The notes under the pieces were generated by a model. That model saw nothing but the letters and a program-made list of their open reading frames with translations, was not told the DNA's origin and did not search any database. A stretch of DNA of 64,000 nucleotides from a virus (Duplodnaviria; Caudoviricetes): IMG/VR virus record IMGVR_UViG_3300047469_000103, positions 64,001 through 128,000 of that record. One strand, written 5' to 3'. Positions 4,588 through 38,361 of this stretch are shown here, piece by piece. The position numbers and the translations under genes were made by a program. Each line of letters opens with the position of its first letter. Within the stretch, counting starts at the first letter, position 1.

Positions 4588-5781
4588 ATGGGTATCGCAA
4601 TTCGTAAAGAGGGATTTATCACGGCAGGCACCGTGTCTCTCGCAATTATCACCGACATGTTGGCGAATGGTTTTAAAGCCATTTATCCAGTTGATGCTGG
4701 TGGCGTTTTTGTTCCGCCAACTGGCCCTGATGCAGAAAAATTCCACGTAACTTTGGAAGCAGGCCCGACTGTCGATCCACTTAACCCGCTGATTCCCGGC
4801 GCAACTCCAAACCAACCTTGGCGCGTGAATTTCACCGTCACCGATAATGCCACTTTGGGTATTTTCGTTGGCAGTTCTGCCGCGCTGAAAAATGACGGTT
4901 CTTTGCCGTACACTTCCGACAACGTAAAAACTACCAACAGCCAAGGCGAAACGATTAACACTCGTTTGGTCGGCGCTCGCGGTATTGTTGGTGCGGACTA
5001 CACCCCGCCACGCGGCGCACAGTCGTCGTCGGTTACTGTCGATAAAGAATTCTTTGTTGATGAAACCAAATTCGCGCCACACTGGAACAATCCAACCGAA
5101 GGTTTTGTTAACCGTCGTAATAAAGTTTGGCTGGATATTCAATCGACCACTCCGAAGGGCAGCAGCAACGTAGCGGCTGAAATCATTCCCGCCTACCCAA
5201 CTGATCCGAAAAAAGACGTATCGAATACCTACCCGCTTTCGTACTACCTCGCAATTACTCCACGCGGTTTCTTCCTGTCCGTTTGGCAGGGTAGCATTAC
5301 CAACATGGGCGGCACGGATTTCTCGTGGGTTCTGGTTCAACGTCCTGTGCAGCGTGATACCGGCGCCGTTGTTATTGACGGTAAAGCTCCGGTTTTCTGC
5401 GTGAACAGCGTAGGTAATCAAATCAACCGTTTCGTAGTTCGTGAAGCTGACGTTTCCGATGCCTCCGCAATTATCCTTGCAACTGAGGATAGCAAAGACG
5501 GCACCGCAATTATCAACGGTAAAAAACAAATCGGTGTTTCTGAAAATAACCAGTACATCGTAAACTATCCGTCGCGCCTGAATACTCCGCGTTACGCATA
5601 CACTTACGAACTGGACATGATCGGTTACGCTTCGGCCACCGTGATTTCTGGTACTACCGAAGTTCCACAAACTCTGTACGGCGAACCAACCGAACGGAAA
5701 TACCTCGGTATGCACTCCAACCTCCCGGCAAACAACGGCATGCGTATTGTTGCGCTGACCAAAGGCGGCGGCATCGCGTAA
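4588..5781 (+). CDS. Virion structural/fibre protein, paralog 1
   Basis: 397 aa; collinear with the next ORF (VTLEA..TVDPLN, QPWRV, ITPRG, QRPV.R.TGA, GKAPVFC, RFVVRE.DV, PSRLNT.RYAYTYELDM). Confidence 0.7.
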   Translation: MGIAIRKEGFITAGTVSLAIITDMLANGFKAIYPVDAGGVFVPPTGPDAEKFHVTLEAGPTVDPLNPLIPGATPNQPWRVNFTVTDNATLGIFVGSSAALKNDGSLPYTSDNVKTTNSQGETINTRLVGARGIVGADYTPPRGAQSSSVTVDKEFFVDETKFAPHWNNPTEGFVNRRNKVWLDIQSTTPKGSSNVAAEIIPAYPTDPKKDVSNTYPLSYYLAITPRGFFLSVWQGSITNMGGTDFSWVLVQRPVQRDTGAVVIDGKAPVFCVNSVGNQINRFVVREADVSDASAIILATEDSKDGTAIINGKKQIGVSENNQYIVNYPSRLNTPRYAYTYELDMIGYASATVISGTTEVPQTLYGEPTERKYLGMHSNLPANNGMRIVALTKGGGIA

Positions 5782-5794
5782 GGGGATTAAAAAA

Positions 5795-6835
5795 ATGGCA
5801 GTTTCTGGTTTTTATGTTCGTCGCAGCGGTTATACCCACGTTGGCGAATTGATGTTGGCTGTAATTGCCGACATGAGCGCGAACGGTTTTGCTGTTCGTT
5901 TTCCAGCCGCATGGGTTCCGCCAGTTGATCCGACTGGCCGTGCGAAATTCAAAGTAACTTTGGAAGCAAGCGAAACCGTTGATCCACTCAACGCCACCGC
6001 TTTGCAAAACAAACAACCTTGGCGCGTACAAATCGAAGTTTTCGACAAGCATACCGCTGGCGTAACTACTGGTTCGCAACAAGCTTTGCGCACTGATGGT
6101 TCCGCGTCGTATTCGATTAACGGCACCAAACTGAAAGGCCCGCAAGGCGCTGTCGGTGGCTACTACACCAAAGGCACTACGCTGGCTGATATCAGTCCTG
6201 ATCCAACCAAACCAGCGGAAGGTTTTATTAACCGAACTTCCCGTGTTGTTTTGGGCGCAATTGATTTGGCTGATTCTTTCCCAATGACTTATTCGCTTTC
6301 GATCACGCCTCGCGGTGTGGCCCTTTGCGTTTGGGAAGACTACGTTTCTGACAGCGGCGCTGCTGCAATTTCGTGGTTTGTTATTCAACGTCCGGTTGAT
6401 CGTACTACCGGCGCAGCAATCATTACCGGTAAAGCTCCGGTATTCTGCCTGAATGGCGTTAACAACGTTATTAACCGTTTTGTTGTGCGTGAGTCTGACG
6501 TACTCAAACCGTCTGACGCCGTTGACGCTACAAAAGACACGGATTACAACAACGCAATTATCAACGGAATTGAACAAGTAGCAATTTCCGAAGGTAATCG
6601 TTACGTTGTGGCTTTCCCTTCGCGTCTGAATACCACACGTTACGCCTATACCTACGAACTCGACATGCTGGGTTACACCAGTGCCGACGTGGTATCGGAA
6701 AACACGGATGTTCCGCTGACTGTTTACAACGAGGGAACTCCGCGTAAATACGTTTCGCTTCTGGCGAACGGTGCGAATAACACCGGCATGCGAATTGTGT
6801 CAATTAAGGAAGGCGGCGGTATTTCGCTGACCTAA
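5795..6835 (+). CDS. Virion structural/fibre protein, paralog 2
   Basis: 346 aa; same motifs as 4588-5781. Confidence 0.7.
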   Translation: MAVSGFYVRRSGYTHVGELMLAVIADMSANGFAVRFPAAWVPPVDPTGRAKFKVTLEASETVDPLNATALQNKQPWRVQIEVFDKHTAGVTTGSQQALRTDGSASYSINGTKLKGPQGAVGGYYTKGTTLADISPDPTKPAEGFINRTSRVVLGAIDLADSFPMTYSLSITPRGVALCVWEDYVSDSGAAAISWFVIQRPVDRTTGAAIITGKAPVFCLNGVNNVINRFVVRESDVLKPSDAVDATKDTDYNNAIINGIEQVAISEGNRYVVAFPSRLNTTRYAYTYELDMLGYTSADVVSENTDVPLTVYNEGTPRKYVSLLANGANNTGMRIVSIKEGGGISLT

Positions 6836-10653: not shown

Positions 10654-13349
10654 ATCTTTTGAACACGATTGCCCTGCCGAATCAGCATGTCGCGCACGGT
10701 CAAGATTATATTGCGGTTTATGCTGACGGTGTGGTGTCAACGTACCGAAAGAATCGCATTGATAACACAGTTGATTTGCAGCCGGTAACTTATGATGTTG
10801 CCGGTGTGCTGTCTCTTCGCATGAGTCAGAACGGACAAATCATTGCGGTACAAACTGCAACCCAAACAATTCGTTTACAAAATGGCACGCAAACCCCATT
10901 CAACAACATCGGTCGATTTGATATTGCCAACACTGGGCATTTGATTATTGTCGATGCTGTGAATGGTGCAGTGCAGGTAATTACCAACTCGACTACGAAT
11001 CTCGCAACTACCGTCACTGACGACGACCGCGTGGTTTGTGGCCGACAAGGTTACATGGTTTACAACACGGCGCGGACTCTGCTCGGTGCGAAATTCGCTG
11101 ACGTAACTTTTACCAACACACCGGCTGCAAAAGAAATCGTTCATTGCCTGCACGTGAAAGACGATAAATATGCAATCTTTTACAAAGACGGCACCGCAAC
11201 TTATGACGGCATTACGCGTACAGTTGCTGGCCCGAACGCGGGTTTCCGTGAAGCTGGTTCGCATCTGTTGTCTACGGATTACAAACAGGATTTCTACACG
11301 TCGCGATTTAACCCGCTGTCGGATGCGAAATCTTTGCGCACATTTAAATGGCTGTTTCCGCCCCTCGCCTCTGCTGCACAATGGGCTGCCTTGAAATTGA
11401 TGGCTACCGGTAACGCAATTACTACCGGGTTTGATTCGAAAAACGCATTGGCAGTTGTTAACAGCGGTGGTATGACGGTTGTGCCGGATGCTCCTTTCGG
11501 GGGCAACGGTAATTCGTTGAATTTCGATGGCAGCACTTCACTTCTGCAAACTGCTGACAGTGCAAATATTCAATTAGGCGGCGCGGATTTCACAATTGAA
11601 CTCTTTGTTAAAATCGCTTCCGGCGCCACGGGTGTTATTACCGTGCTTAACAAAGGCGGAGGTCTAAACGTTTCGTGGTCTAGTTTTATTCTTCAGGCAA
11701 TTACTGCAACAAAATCGTTTTGTTTTGCTGCGTCTACTTCCAATACGAAATACGAAGTCGGTAGTACGGACGGCGTAGGAGCGTGGGGCAGTTTTGAATA
11801 CGACACGTGGACGCATATTGCAATCACGCGAAAAGTAAACGTGTGGCGCTGTTTCCAAGACGGTAAACTGCAAGCGAAATATAACGTCGCGGGTTCGGTG
11901 TTTGCGAATAGCGGACGCGGACTTTCAATCGGCCACAGTCGGCAGAACGATTTTAATAGTGGCACTGTGTATGGTCGTCTGCAAGGGCGACTGCACGCAC
12001 TGGCAATTCACAATTACGCAAAATACACGTCTAATTTCGTGGTCGATACGATTCCATTGGCGCTTGATACTCGCGTGCCACCGGCCACACTTTCGGCGCT
12101 CACATGGATGCAAATGAGCTTTGCTGGCGGCACAGCTTTAGAAGAAGTGAGCGGCACCGTTATGCCACTTGCTGCAACTGCGTCTATCACAAATAATAAA
12201 CTGGTAAATACCGATGCGACCGTAACTGTAATGGATAAACTGACACCGGTTTATTTCAACGCAGTGGAAGATTTTAGTATCGAAGGCTGGTTTAATTTCA
12301 GCAGCGTCGATCCTGCTTTTGCCGCTACAATTTTGTGTGTCGATGCCAGCAACGGTGATGCAGACAGATCGTTCAACTTGAACGTTTATCCAACGGGAAA
12401 CACAGCAGGTTTTATTCTGTCTGCGAATGGAACCACTGGCGGATATTCGCTTAATGGCACCTATGCTTTCCAAGCAAATACTGACCATCATTTGGCTGCG
12501 TGCCGTGTAGGCGGTGTGCTTACCATTTATCTGGATGGTGTGTCTATTTATGCTGGTGCAAATAACACGGCCAGTTTTAAATCCACACAATTCCTGAATG
12601 TTCGTCGTGGTGCAATCGGTAAGCGCTGGGGATTACGGGTTGTGCGCGGTGCGTCTGCGTACAGTGCAGCGTTTACGCCGCCTGTTTCGTTGCCGCCTTT
12701 GTTGGCAAACAATTACGCGCCTGCTGTGCAATCCGACGTTATTTTTCAAACGTGTTTCCGTGGCAATAGCCTGAATGACGAAGTGACAAGTTCGCCACTC
12801 ACTTTATCGGGCGCGGGTATTACCGCTGCTGAAGGCCGCTTGAAAATATCGCAAACCGGTTCAACGTCGCGCTTCGAAAAATTCATTCCGTATTTCGGTG
12901 CGGGCGATTACACAATCGAAGTTTTGCTGCGCGTAGTCAGCACAGCAGCCAACGAAAACTGCATCATGGGGCAGTACGTTAACCCCGGCCAAAACAATAG
13001 CTGGTTGATGTGGTACAGCGCGGGAATGGGTTTTATTTTCTATTCCAATTCCACGGCTGGCGGATTGGTTGGGTTGACTGCTACAAAAACACTTCCGGTT
13101 AATACCGATGTGCATTTGGTAATCGAAAAGTACAATAACGTGCTGACGATTTACATGGATGGTGTCGCGTGCGGTACGGTTGCAAATACGCAGCCTCTAT
13201 CGGATAACAGTGCAACCATTCCAGTACGAAATTGGTGGGGCGATAACTCCATGAGCAACAACATGTTGATTAAATACATTCGCATTGCAAAACGCGCAAT
13301 GTATCAGGGTGCAGTAACTACCAAAGCCGTGTTGCCGCGCATTGTGTGA
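10650..13349 (+). CDS. Tail fibre/adhesin with three LamG (concanavalin A-like) domains
   Basis: 899 aa; three repeats of 'DFTIE.F/W...W.H.A..R....LTIY.DG' typical of LamG-like domains; ATGA overlap with the upstream gene. Confidence 0.75.
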   Translation: MNLLNTIALPNQHVAHGQDYIAVYADGVVSTYRKNRIDNTVDLQPVTYDVAGVLSLRMSQNGQIIAVQTATQTIRLQNGTQTPFNNIGRFDIANTGHLIIVDAVNGAVQVITNSTTNLATTVTDDDRVVCGRQGYMVYNTARTLLGAKFADVTFTNTPAAKEIVHCLHVKDDKYAIFYKDGTATYDGITRTVAGPNAGFREAGSHLLSTDYKQDFYTSRFNPLSDAKSLRTFKWLFPPLASAAQWAALKLMATGNAITTGFDSKNALAVVNSGGMTVVPDAPFGGNGNSLNFDGSTSLLQTADSANIQLGGADFTIELFVKIASGATGVITVLNKGGGLNVSWSSFILQAITATKSFCFAASTSNTKYEVGSTDGVGAWGSFEYDTWTHIAITRKVNVWRCFQDGKLQAKYNVAGSVFANSGRGLSIGHSRQNDFNSGTVYGRLQGRLHALAIHNYAKYTSNFVVDTIPLALDTRVPPATLSALTWMQMSFAGGTALEEVSGTVMPLAATASITNNKLVNTDATVTVMDKLTPVYFNAVEDFSIEGWFNFSSVDPAFAATILCVDASNGDADRSFNLNVYPTGNTAGFILSANGTTGGYSLNGTYAFQANTDHHLAACRVGGVLTIYLDGVSIYAGANNTASFKSTQFLNVRRGAIGKRWGLRVVRGASAYSAAFTPPVSLPPLLANNYAPAVQSDVIFQTCFRGNSLNDEVTSSPLTLSGAGITAAEGRLKISQTGSTSRFEKFIPYFGAGDYTIEVLLRVVSTAANENCIMGQYVNPGQNNSWLMWYSAGMGFIFYSNSTAGGLVGLTATKTLPVNTDVHLVIEKYNNVLTIYMDGVACGTVANTQPLSDNSATIPVRNWWGDNSMSNNMLIKYIRIAKRAMYQGAVTTKAVLPRIV

Positions 13350-13395
13350 TGGCACCGGGTTTACCAATGATGGCACATTGATATTGCAGGGAATT

Positions 13396-25186: not shown

Positions 25187-25720
25187 TTACTTTTTCTTTT
25201 TCACAATCGAGCCGATAGTCGATTTCTTCAACTTCGGCAATTCTTTAATTGCGTCCAACAACTTGTGATGCTCGCGGCTCAGCTTGTCACGAGCTTCCGG
25301 CAGCGTAAACCATTTACGTTTGCGCAGCTTCTTTTCGTCCCAATGATCCAGCGCAACATGGAACTGCATCGCGTACATCTTTACGATTTGTTTCATGCCG
25401 TCTTTCTTGTATTCAAACGTACCGATTTTCTTTGTAACGGTGCCGGTGATACCTGCCTCTTCGAAGCATTCTTTTGCCGCGTTAGCGCGTGCGTCCAAAT
25501 GCTTTTCCTGCCCGCCTTTGGTGAAACCCCACCATGCGCCTTTCTTCAGTTTTTTCACCAACAGAACTTGTCGCACGCCGTCAACGTCGCGGTATGGAAT
25601 ACAGCCAGACTGCAAGCGTACTTCTTTCGGCTTTTCTTTCTTCGATTTAGCAACAGCAATTTCAATATCCACGGAAACCTCAACAGTATGTGAGTGTGGG
25701 AAAGGCGCTTCCCACTCCAT
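25187..25720 (-). CDS. Nudix hydrolase (DIPP/Ap4A-hydrolase-like)
   Basis: 'SGCIPYR...VLLV...WGFTKGGQEKHLDARANAAKECFEEAGI' Nudix box; 'R.R.W'. Confidence 0.85.
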   Translation of the reverse strand: MEWEAPFPHSHTVEVSVDIEIAVAKSKKEKPKEVRLQSGCIPYRDVDGVRQVLLVKKLKKGAWWGFTKGGQEKHLDARANAAKECFEEAGITGTVTKKIGTFEYKKDGMKQIVKMYAMQFHVALDHWDEKKLRKRKWFTLPEARDKLSREHHKLLDAIKELPKLKKSTIGSIVKKKK

Positions 25721-29782: not shown

Positions 29783-30133
29783 CTACAGAGGGATTACACG
29801 AAAAAGGAAATTGCATGCGCGGATTACCAGCGCTGCGCAAATGGAATCTAAAACGAGTTGGTACGGCTCGCATGGATCGTCGTAAATATCCGGCAACGAA
29901 TAATCGCCGTCGTAGTTCGGTTCCAAATACAGCAAGCCTTCCATGCGATTGCGCGGGCTATCCGTCACACATTCATCAGGACGCACGCCGTACAGATTCA
30001 TCAACTGGCGCGCACCGATGTAATGAACCTGACCATCGAATTTGCTAATTACTTCACCCGGACAAATCAGGAAATGTTTTCCGTGATCGGACAGGTACAC
30101 GCAATCTTTACCGAGTGTGGTTTTGTAGTTCAC
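29783..30133 (-). CDS. Hypothetical protein
   Basis: GTGA overlap; 'LICPG.V.S..DGQ.HYI.A.QL..LYGV...EC' motif. Confidence 0.65.
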
Positions 30134-30726
30134 AGCGGCTTCAATTCCTTGATGTTCACTTGCGTGTTTTTGTAGCCTTCGTTGCCCTTCAGTCCACGCG
30201 TCAATTCGGCATAAACTTCGCCGTCGTTTTGCACAGTGTAGCGAACCAGAATCCACGCCATTTCACTGAAGCGCACCGGGTCGCCTACGTGTGGGACAAA
30301 CGTCTGCACCTGAAAGAATTCGGTAGGCTTCATTTCAGCCGCCAGACTTTCGAACTGTGCAATCAACGTAGAGAAATCGGTTTTGTTTTCCAACAGCGCC
30401 TCAATTTCTTTTTTCAGCTTCTCGCCGTCAACGCTGTCTTCCAGTTCAACCGCACTCATGAACCACTGACCAGAACGCAAAAGCTTTTTCAGCATTGTTT
30501 CCAGTTCTTTGCAGCGCTGTGCAGCTTTCACGCCATCCACCAGCGTGTTCATGCTTGGAGCATGCCCGGTTTCTTTGTGAGCGGCCAAGCACATTTCGAT
30601 CCACGCTACCATCTGACTGTTCATGCTGCGATGTTGCGTATCAGCAATTTCCTTCACATGATCGCGCATGCCTTCCAGAAGGCGGATAACGAATTTGTCG
30701 GCGGTGCGGCTGCTGTAGGTTTTCAT
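30130..30726 (-). CDS. amrZ: AmrZ/Arc-family ribbon-helix-helix transcription factor with extended C-terminus
   Basis: N-terminus [35 protein letters not shown] closely matches Pseudomonas Amr[36 protein letters not shown] (recalled sequence). This is a phage homolog, not the host gene. Confidence 0.85.
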
Positions 30727-30770
30727 AAACATCCTAAATATAAATAGTGAATCGCGCAGGAAAGCGGAAC

Positions 30771-32240: not shown

Positions 32241-32471
32241 TCAGTCGATATGGTCACTCATGCGCAGAATGATTTCGTCTGCCATTCCACGACTGCCATA
32301 TTCTTTGCCGTCGATGGTTTGTGTACCTTGGCACGTGATGAACATCGACTGCACTTTGGCAACGCCCGCACTGACGATTTTACCCGGCAGTGTCAGCATG
32401 TCAAAATCCAGATCGTCGCCAACAATAACCGGTACTTCTTTGTCGCCCACTTTCAGAATAACGTATTTCAT
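32241..32471 (-). CDS. Hypothetical protein, diverged 'MKYV...SAG' family
   Basis: 76 aa; 'MKYVIL...IVSAG...CQG...SRG..DEIIL'. Confidence 0.6.
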   Translation of the reverse strand: MKYVILKVGDKEVPVIVGDDLDFDMLTLPGKIVSAGVAKVQSMFITCQGTQTIDGKEYGSRGMADEIILRMSDHID

Positions 32472-33502: not shown

Positions 33503-34150
33503 TTAGACCACAGTTGCGAACGATGCCATGCGTGCTTCTAACGTCTTTGCCCAAATGCGTTTAGCTGGTTCGGTGAACATCGTTTGGCTGTTAAGGAAAT
33601 CAACCTGTGCCTTTGCGAACTCGGGCGCGGTCATATTCATTTGCAATTCACCACGCAAGTCGTGCGCCAGCGTTTGGATGTGAAACGGTTCGATACTTTC
33701 CATCAAATCCGCATCGCGCAAAACTTCTTGCAGGATGCCGACCGGTTCAATCACGAACGGGTATTCCGTGCATTCGATCATCTTGGCAATGTCTTGAATG
33801 GCGGTACGCGTGAAGTAATCGAGAACAGGCGGTGCGATGAACAGATGCGCAATTGCGATTTTGATATTCGTGCGATCAGGACGTTTGCCGGTGTGGCCGA
33901 AGTCATGGAACAACGCGGCACAAATCAGCATTGCCAAATCACGCTGCAAACGCCAGCCGTTAGCGATCAACAATTCAACGCAGCGCAGCGCAGTACGAAC
34001 GCAGTGCGGCGGGTTGTGATACAGGTTGCCGTGTTCGTCGCCTTCCAGCAAAACGTACTCGTAAATTTCACGCATTTTCAACTGGTCGATAATTTCTTCG
34101 AACAGCGCCATGCGATAATCTGCGACGACTTGTAATTCCAGATTGCTCAT
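33503..34150 (-). CDS. HD-domain phosphohydrolase
   Basis: 'YHNPPHC', 'AALFHDFGH' and 'LRDADL' give the H...HD...D signature. Confidence 0.85.
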   Translation of the reverse strand: MSNLELQVVADYRMALFEEIIDQLKMREIYEYVLLEGDEHGNLYHNPPHCVRTALRCVELLIANGWRLQRDLAMLICAALFHDFGHTGKRPDRTNIKIAIAHLFIAPPVLDYFTRTAIQDIAKMIECTEYPFVIEPVGILQEVLRDADLMESIEPFHIQTLAHDLRGELQMNMTAPEFAKAQVDFLNSQTMFTEPAKRIWAKTLEARMASFATVV

Positions 34151-37456: not shown

Positions 37457-37843
37457 TTAAACCTTGTAGTAGTCGCGCAGCTTCGCGATACCTTTGCGGA
37501 AAGTGTCGGTGTACATTTCCACGCGGTTCGGGCGTTCCAGCACGTCGAAACACATTTTGAATTCGTCGGTCGGAACTTGCGCCAGCTTCACAACGGTGTA
37601 CGGCAGTTCGCCGGGAACCAGACGCGAAGTGATTTCTTTTTCCACTGCGCGAATTGCGATTTCGATAACTTCAGAAACCGAATCGCTGGTGTGCGCGTTG
37701 CCGTTGAAATTGAAATGGTTCAAACCGTTTTCTTGTGTCAGGAAATCGGCTGGCTGGCCCGCGCCGTTTTTGTTCTGGTGCGGAGTGCCGATGAACAGGG
37801 TATCAACGATATCGAAAAAACCAGATGCAAAATGGTTGCTCAT
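37457..37843 (-). CDS. Hypothetical protein
   Basis: Start MSNHFASG at a TAATG overlap; 128 aa. Confidence 0.6.
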   Translation of the reverse strand: MSNHFASGFFDIVDTLFIGTPHQNKNGAGQPADFLTQENGLNHFNFNGNAHTSDSVSEVIEIAIRAVEKEITSRLVPGELPYTVVKLAQVPTDEFKMCFDVLERPNRVEMYTDTFRKGIAKLRDYYKV

Positions 37844-38361
37844 TATTTTACCTTCTTTTTCAGTTCTGTGAGTTTGTGGTCGCGGCACGCTTTCCAAGGA
37901 TCAACGCCGCGCATGCTGTCGCGAAACTTCGTCAGCAGAATTCCGTATTGATCTGCGCCTTTTCCGTTTTTACCGGTGGCCCAAAATTCATCCCATTCGC
38001 CTTTGTGCGAAAGCCGCGCTCTACCGGTTGCCAACAACGCAGCCAGACGATGCGGGTTTTGCATATACGATTCACGAATGGAAATTTCGTGGTTCTTCAA
38101 ACGTTCGGTGTCGTAGGCATCAACCGGAATGCCGCCTGCTTTCTTCGAACCGAAGTGTTTCATTTTGTACGGATCGAATGCCAGCAGAATCTTGTTGCGC
38201 AGGTCGTCACTTTTCTTACTCAGCTTTCGGAACTGGTAGAATTGTTCCTGACATTTCCACATGCGGCCTTTGTAGTAAAACGGCGCGGGCCACATGGCGC
38301 TAAAGATTTCGTTTTCATACGAGTTGAACTCGATTACCTTCTGCTTTTCCTTCGCCATCAA
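37843..38361 (-). CDS. NADAR (YbiA-like) family protein
   Basis: 'FSAMWP..F...G..W...EQFYQF.K', 'K.FG', 'QNP..L..LLATG...L', 'DEFW.TG..GKG.DQ.G.LL...R'. Confidence 0.85.
   Translation of the reverse strand: MMAKEKQKVIEFNSYENEIFSAMWPAPFYYKGRMWKCQEQFYQFRKLSKKSDDLRNKILLAFDPYKMKHFGSKKAGGIPVDAYDTERLKNHEISIRESYMQNPHRLAALLATGRARLSHKGEWDEFWATGKNGKGADQYGILLTKFRDSMRGVDPWKACRDHKLTELKKKVK

Follow-up and report, generated by a model that had tools for sequence, protein, structure and literature searches.

A candidate AmrZ-like regulator with an inserted helical module and a C-terminal barrel in an uncultured jumbo phage

The window (the whole 64-kb stretch of phage DNA that was analysed) encodes on its minus strand a protein in which a ribbon-helix-helix (RHH) head, carrying all of the DNA-contact residues of AmrZ, is followed by an inserted helical module and a beta barrel. 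On balance, we lean towards a phage-borne AmrZ homologue that would reset the host AmrZ regulon during infection. The protein would be an RHH transcription factor with the same DNA-reading surface as AmrZ, a global regulator of Pseudomonas, and would, as a dimer of dimers, recognise AmrZ-type operators, in which two GGC half-sites are separated by 5 bp of A/T-rich linker. When the jumbo phage infects a Pseudomonas-like host, the protein would sit on the host promoters that AmrZ targets, namely those of motility, exopolysaccharide and c-di-GMP genes, of amrZ itself and, in some hosts, of CRISPR-Cas, and the regulon would thereby be reset to the phage's advantage. The tetramerisation domain of AmrZ is swapped for the helical module, with probable self-association, and for an SH3/Tudor-like barrel that other phage AmrZ-like proteins also have.

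Phage-borne AmrZ copies are a documented route to the rewiring of host motility, biofilm and CRISPR-Cas expression, and the class now extends to a clade of uncultured jumbo phages. Here the AmrZ-type reading head is combined with a barrel apparently common to it and the phage protein Gp53, and with a small module, as yet uncharacterised, that is encoded on many metagenomic phage-like contigs. The advance is incremental; it indicates which domains to dissect in such regulators and flags a new small domain family.

Phage context, host and gene

To judge from its sequence, the window belongs to a jumbo myophage that has not been cultured and whose relatives include the Pseudomonas phages HRDY3, Lu11 and PaBG. 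Its large genes encode tail-sheath and virion proteins, and the best matches of these genes were in HRDY3 (313 kb, 59% identity), Lu11 (51%) and PaBG (41%), followed by Erwinia and Yersinia jumbo phages. The G+C content of the window is approximately 0.49, and no tRNA genes were found in it. Two adjacent plus-strand genes (4588-5781 and 5795-6835) were both matched end-to-end to the same tail-sheath family, PHROG 12249 (E 4e-119 and 2e-114, respectively), suggesting that the sheath gene was duplicated in tandem.

Cellular homologues of the AmrZ-like protein were sought in about 186,000 species genomes using its two most conserved peptide patterns, and 577 cellular loci were confirmed. The best 80 of the 577 were all chromosomal AmrZ of about 108 aa and all from Pseudomonadaceae (Pseudomonas, Halopseudomonas, Azotobacter, Thiopseudomonas, Denitrificimonas, and Serpens). 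Among the phage records with a homologue by tblastn, 24 of 26 were Pseudomonas phages, including PaBG and phi3. The phage context and the host family were obtained directly from these searches, and the two counts, together with the relationship to HRDY3, Lu11 and PaBG, make a Pseudomonas-like host likely, in agreement with what had been proposed from the sequence-only reading.

The open frame (30130..30732, minus strand) comprises 200 codons from an in-frame ATG at 30732, and residue numbers of the AmrZ-like protein are counted from that ATG throughout. The start is likely the ATG at 30726, because AGGA (30735-30732, read from the sequence) lies 5 nt before it and because the homologues open with MKKTYSSR or MRKTYSSR; the 198-aa gene called earlier, with coordinates 30130-30726 (Table 1), is therefore preferred to the longer frame. 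On a second contig the gene callers placed the same gene, and the protein is also encoded on a contig of approximately 300 kb.

Table 1. Features of the AmrZ-like locus and of the surrounding accessory block (positions in the window)
Feature	Position	Strand	Remarks
AmrZ-like three-domain protein gene	30130..30726	-	198 aa; stop TGA at 30130-30132
AmrZ/Arc-matching N-terminal segment	30568..30723	-	PDB match AmrZ; Pfam Arc; Foldseek top matches 3qoq chains
Inserted helical module, residues 61-135	30328..30552	-	about 75 aa, of which about 45 aa form a conserved core
SH3/Tudor-like beta barrel, residues 145-200	30133..30300	-	AF2 pLDDT about 88 at 150-200
116-aa downstream gene, function unknown	29783..30133	-	GTG start overlaps AmrZ-like stop (GTGA); PHROG 7644
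190-aa upstream gene, one hydrophobic segment	30771..31343	-	ends 38 nt before the 30732 ATG, 44 nt before 30726
Nudix	25187-25720	-	Pfam E 2.5e-9
HD-domain protein	33503-34150	-	Pfam, near threshold
NADAR	37843-38361	-	Pfam E 6e-13

The AmrZ-like gene is predicted to lie within a long operon made up of small minus-strand genes. The overlap of its stop codon with the start of the downstream gene implies translational coupling of the latter, and since no promoter-like or terminator-like site was found on the coding (minus) strand in the gap to the 190-aa gene, these two genes are placed in one operon. The neighbouring genes matched no informative family in Pfam or PHROG. Gene order is the same around the AmrZ-like gene on two related contigs (L083 and L085), and synteny of the gene is kept across related jumbo-phage contigs (175-320 kb). 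By Pfam, NADAR, Nudix and HD proteins are encoded among the small accessory genes of the surrounding minus-strand block, and these are candidate nucleotide or ADP-ribose counter-defence genes. A sigma-70-type promoter candidate (TTGACA-16-TAAAAT, 11/12 consensus; window 32377-32404, minus strand) was noted inside a 76-aa gene of the same operon, about 1.6 kb upstream of the AmrZ-like gene; its hexamers recur at the equivalent place in L083 (position 1996) and are absent in L085. The site could be a sign that host RNAP transcribes the block around the AmrZ-like gene, and does so early.

The AmrZ-type head and its phylogeny

In a phmmer search against all PDB sequences, the sole match was AmrZ (3qoq_A, E 9e-13); P22 Arc and Mnt, both in the PDB, were unmatched at E <= 1. 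Query residues 4-50 were aligned without gaps to 3qoq chain residues 12-58 with 28/47 identities (60%). The earlier count of about 27 matches in the N-terminal 42 aa is reproduced closely, since 26 were counted from the 30726 start in the 3qoq_A alignment. The Pfam Arc family (PF03869) was matched at residues 8-48 with 46.5 bits, above the curated cutoff of 20.4. By Foldseek, AmrZ chains were the top matches (TM by target 0.68-0.73). The AF2 monomer has RHH helices at 22-33 and 37-55 and no N-terminal strand, as expected because the partner chain is absent from a monomer model.

In the AmrZ-DNA complex, the bases of the GGC half-site are recognised by K18, V20 and R22, S13 and R14 (the latter required at algD) enter the major groove, and the N-terminal loop is held by Y11 and E25; the backbone is contacted by R28 and the helix-2 N-terminus, N43 positions R22, and the dimers contact each other on DNA through H38(CO)-R40 and H39-E51 (Pryor 2012, PMC3325190). 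The contact set Y11, S13, R14, K18, V20, R22, E25, R28 and N43 corresponds to Y6, S8, R9, K13, V15, R17, E20, R23 and N38 of the window protein, all of which are present. The equivalents of K18, V20, R22 and of S13-R14 pointed out in the sequence-only reading are thus K13, V15, R17 and S8-R9, and the roles ascribed to them in AmrZ agree with Pryor 2012. The dimer-dimer residues H39, E51 and R40 correspond to H34, E46 and R35, each with a conservation of at least 90%.

Among the 12 full-length family members, the contact equivalents are nearly all invariant or at least 90% conserved. The invariant columns of the family (S8, R9, A11, D12, K13, F14, V15, R17, R23, R35, S36, M37, N38, and S39) are nearly all AmrZ DNA-contact or DNA-positioning residues. 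The residues that differ from AmrZ are I16, on the side of the strand that faces the core, and L19, in the turn between strand and helix. The homology and the conserved contact residues were obtained directly from these alignments, and a DNA specificity like that of AmrZ would follow from them. In comparison with chromosomal AmrZ (AlgZ, 3QOQ), the N-terminal arm, the beta strand, the start of helix 1 and the N-terminus of helix 2 are nearly identical, and the half-site-reading and dimer-dimer residues are the same. The window protein differs from AmrZ in being phage-encoded, in lacking the tetramerisation domain, in falling outside the host clade and in the second half of helix 2. The similarity to AmrZ stops at residue 50, and the C-terminal tetramerisation domain of AmrZ (residues 67-108) has no counterpart.

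A maximum-likelihood tree was built from the 48-residue RHH core (48 columns) with 43 distinct host sequences; its deeper branching order is unreliable. The 43 host RHH sequences formed one group (95/89 support) that excluded the AmrZ-like phage protein, with Noxifer-type phage proteins adjoining, and the AmrZ-like protein was grouped with five other proteins of about 200 aa in a phage-only clade. The helix-2 signature is NSQ..W.E.C in the phage proteins versus NSEIIARLEQSL in the hosts, or, for phage and metagenomic proteins together, RSMNSQI..W.E.C versus RSMNSEIIARLEQSL; in the second half of this helix, W44, M47 and C48 stand in place of R, Q and S. The DNA-facing half of the RHH domain is frozen, and in the distal half of helix 2 the phage proteins have a sequence of their own. 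Both the phage-only clade and its own helix-2 signature argue against recent copying of the gene from a host, and the targets of the phage protein may have drifted. The resemblance to AmrZ noticed in the sequence-only reading is confirmed; as to the clustering with generic prophage Arc repressors that was to refute that reading, the protein lies outside host AmrZ, in a phage-only AmrZ-like RHH clade, and it is unlike P22 Arc and Mnt at the threshold given above.

P22 Arc and Mnt belong to the same Pfam family and fold class, and Mnt, too, adds a C-terminal helical tetramerisation domain to its RHH head (cited in Pryor 2012, PMC3325190). The PDB search detected no pairwise similarity between them and the window protein, and their beta-strand residues differ from those of the window protein, so that their operators differ.

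The helical module and the C-terminal barrel

The part behind the RHH head had been read as a coiled coil plus a small beta domain, which is roughly right, the coiled coil being putative. In the AF2 model, calculated from a 12-sequence alignment, helices (61-86, 103-115, and 120-133) are followed by a beta barrel. For the middle module the AF2 pLDDT is 83.8. The core motif of the module is L..LL.KL..sG.W[FY].SA[IL]E[LF]D...[VI]DGEEL..EI..LL, in which G88 and E96 are invariant in a 60-sequence alignment. A profile of residues 61-200 was searched against 1.84 billion representative proteins and gave 138 matches, including about a dozen full-length relatives; more than 100 of the 138 were small proteins of 50-160 aa that matched profile positions 8-62 only. 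The module-only small metagenomic proteins (P0041-P0166) sit on short phage-like contigs.

The module matched no Pfam or PHROG family, and a cluster look-up of the module-only proteins returned no informative names. A Foldseek search of the PDB with the module gave nothing below E 4, a VIA-wide search gave generic helical hairpins (Z <= 5.8, under the tool's stated helical noise level), and an ESM Atlas features search gave no usable match. When HRDY3, PaBG, Noxifer, SM1 and phi3 were searched with tblastn and the profile, the module was found in the HRDY3 orthologue only, a 205-aa protein annotated 'Arc-like DNA binding domain protein'. Four relatives (P0012, P0013, P0057, and P0078) consist of the RHH head plus the barrel without the module, which therefore looks like a portable insertion. 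Some family members (L088 4001-4618, P0012 and P0013), two of the four just named among them, carry an N-terminal extension of about 65 aa matching IF2_N (PF04760); such extended members without the module suggest that accessory domains have been shuffled around a constant RHH plus barrel.

This domain architecture was obtained directly, and the module is probably an oligomerisation or partner-binding element. Since a helical hairpin that can stand alone in a 56-aa protein needs something to associate with if it is to fold, we infer that the module provides self-association and so stands in for the C-terminal domains through which AmrZ and Mnt tetramerise; the oligomeric state of the protein would follow from this. 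As an inserted module with its own family of small proteins, it looks undescribed.

The barrel has the motif F.P.vG.PV...W.l..Y...dg.v.A.l......V....L.P. and was matched by fold to Tudor (6hq9, TM by target 0.73-0.75), KOW and eIF5A-N domains, all with weak E-values, and, again with weak E-values, to many small phage proteins of unknown function. These fold searches suggest a class (SH3/Tudor/KOW) only, and not a function. By hhalign, the barrel profile was aligned to the C-terminus of SM1 gp115 (probability 90.9%, E 1.1e-6, 56 columns) and weakly to PaBG gp184 (probability 27%). The sharing of this barrel between the AmrZ-like protein and SM1 gp115, an apparent orthologue of Gp53, looks undescribed. 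It is conceivable, and we think unlikely, that the module is a new portable interaction domain and the barrel docks a partner such as RNA polymerase, so that a new activity would be tethered to AmrZ operators.

Probable targets and alternative explanations

Fourteen AmrZ homologues have been described on Pseudomonas lytic or temperate phages and plasmids; PaBG and phi3 are among the carriers, five of the six tested homologues from mobile genetic elements (MGEs) complement an amrZ mutant, and three (from PaBG, phi3, and JBD68) repress type I-F CRISPR-Cas (Borges et al., bioRxiv 10.1101/673095). Like these, the window protein is phage-borne and has an RHH with all AmrZ DNA-contact residues, and PaBG, itself a jumbo phage, falls broadly in the group to which the window belongs. 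Judged by carriage on a phage or plasmid of Pseudomonas together with conserved contacts, the window protein belongs with them, its host genus being taken from its relatives. The MGE homologues are 81-138 aa long, whereas the window protein has 198-200 aa with the extra helical module, and the PaBG protein shares 58% identity with it over 38 residues only.

A second precedent is Gp53 (126 aa), an RHH protein made early by the 94-kb P. aeruginosa phage PhiPA1019 (Li et al. 2026, PMC13650114). It binds the fleQ, pslA, amrZ and ftsZ promoters and blocks cell division, its DNA binding needs R15, R21, M35 and N36, and it is reported to be functionally non-equivalent to AmrZ despite common targets (PMC13650114). 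SM1 gp115, from a 93-kb phage, also has 126 aa, with R15, R21, M35 and N36 at those exact positions, and is probably the Gp53 orthologue, as judged from length, genome size and residue numbering and not from the Gp53 sequence. In Gp53/SM1 gp115 as in the window protein, an AmrZ-like RHH is followed by a C-terminal SH3-like barrel, and R15, R21, M35 and N36 of Gp53 correspond to R17, R23, M37 and N38. They differ in that the RHH identity is only about 37%, Gp53 has no middle module and comes from a siphophage rather than a jumbo phage, and the N-terminal arm reads FDTRNAEK in SM1 gp115 versus YSSRTADK in the window protein. Because the mechanism is published for relatives, it becomes more probable here and most of its novelty is gone; the hijack of the host regulon claimed in the sequence-only reading appears plausible and has precedent, and is not new.

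The synteny among the 175-320-kb contigs and the phage-only clade leave room for a phage-directed role, and classical phage RHH proteins act on phage promoters. The protein might accordingly act chiefly on phage genes, as a temporal-switch repressor like P22 Arc and Mnt, with AmrZ-like contacts retained only by shared ancestry; we regard this as somewhat unlikely. Operator searches speak against it, although so short a motif gives an enrichment test little power. GGC-N5-GCC was found at chance level in the window (14 versus 11.8 ± 2.9 expected, the scan covering the 64-kb part of an approximately 300-kb contig) and in the whole HRDY3 genome (113 versus 116.5 ± 9.8 expected). With an A/T-rich linker, the motif was again at chance level in the window, and 17 sites versus 16.9 expected were counted in HRDY3. 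No second Arc-domain gene was found in the 64-kb window.

The phage site that had been proposed at 13347-13380 is not supported either: it is a single 9-bp direct repeat, two TGATGGCAC copies 21 bp apart (13347/13368), located between a stop codon and a terminator, unique, and without a counterpart in HRDY3, and by our own estimate chance alone would give about four 9-mer pairs of this kind in a 64-kb sequence. A sigma-54 reading of the TGATGGCAC site was rejected, as the GG to GC spacing is 12 nt and not 10. Neither a promoter-like site nor an operator was found before the AmrZ-like gene, which makes autoregulation of its own promoter unlikely; with no enriched operators and no promoter gap, a phage operator set is not evident. 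Related phage homologues, moreover, act on host promoters in published tests (PMC13650114; bioRxiv 10.1101/673095). For the resetting of the AmrZ regulon, host rather than phage promoters are therefore favoured as the main target, since the operator tests, of low power, were null and the relatives behave in this way.

A different over-representation was observed in the whole HRDY3 genome (L097-L112), where GGC-N4-GCC occurred 197 times versus 116 ± 9 in shuffles, a strong excess, and GGC-N6-GCC was mildly over-represented (148 versus 117), unlike N5. This pattern may be a coding-sequence effect.

RHH folds form intertwined dimers, and with an RHH domain 60% identical to that of AmrZ, the phage protein might poison host AmrZ as a dominant negative, inactivating it in mixed dimers or tetramers without competition for DNA. 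This is very unlikely: the protein has no counterpart of the tetramerisation domain, the second half of helix 2 is phage-specific (W44/M47/C48), and its DNA-contact residues are strictly conserved, which argues that DNA binding itself is under selection. Regulation through occupied AmrZ-type operators is preferred to such poisoning.

Least credible of all is that the protein is the DNA-binding half of a partition system (a ParG/omega-like centromere binder) or of a toxin-antitoxin pair with the 116-aa protein as partner, for which a weak Pfam ParD_like match (E 0.015, below cutoff), the 'partition protein ATPase' label of PHROGs 2685 and 795 and the overlap of the 116-aa gene with the stop codon might be cited, but the 116-aa protein matched no Pfam family and no toxin or ParA family, its gene is replaced by unrelated genes at the orthologous HRDY3 and L086 loci, and the PHROG label rests on phi3 gp09. 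The latter (L094 1195-1440) is an 81-aa AmrZ-like RHH protein that bears the name 'partition protein ATPase' in RefSeq as well as in both PHROGs, evidently a propagated mis-annotation.
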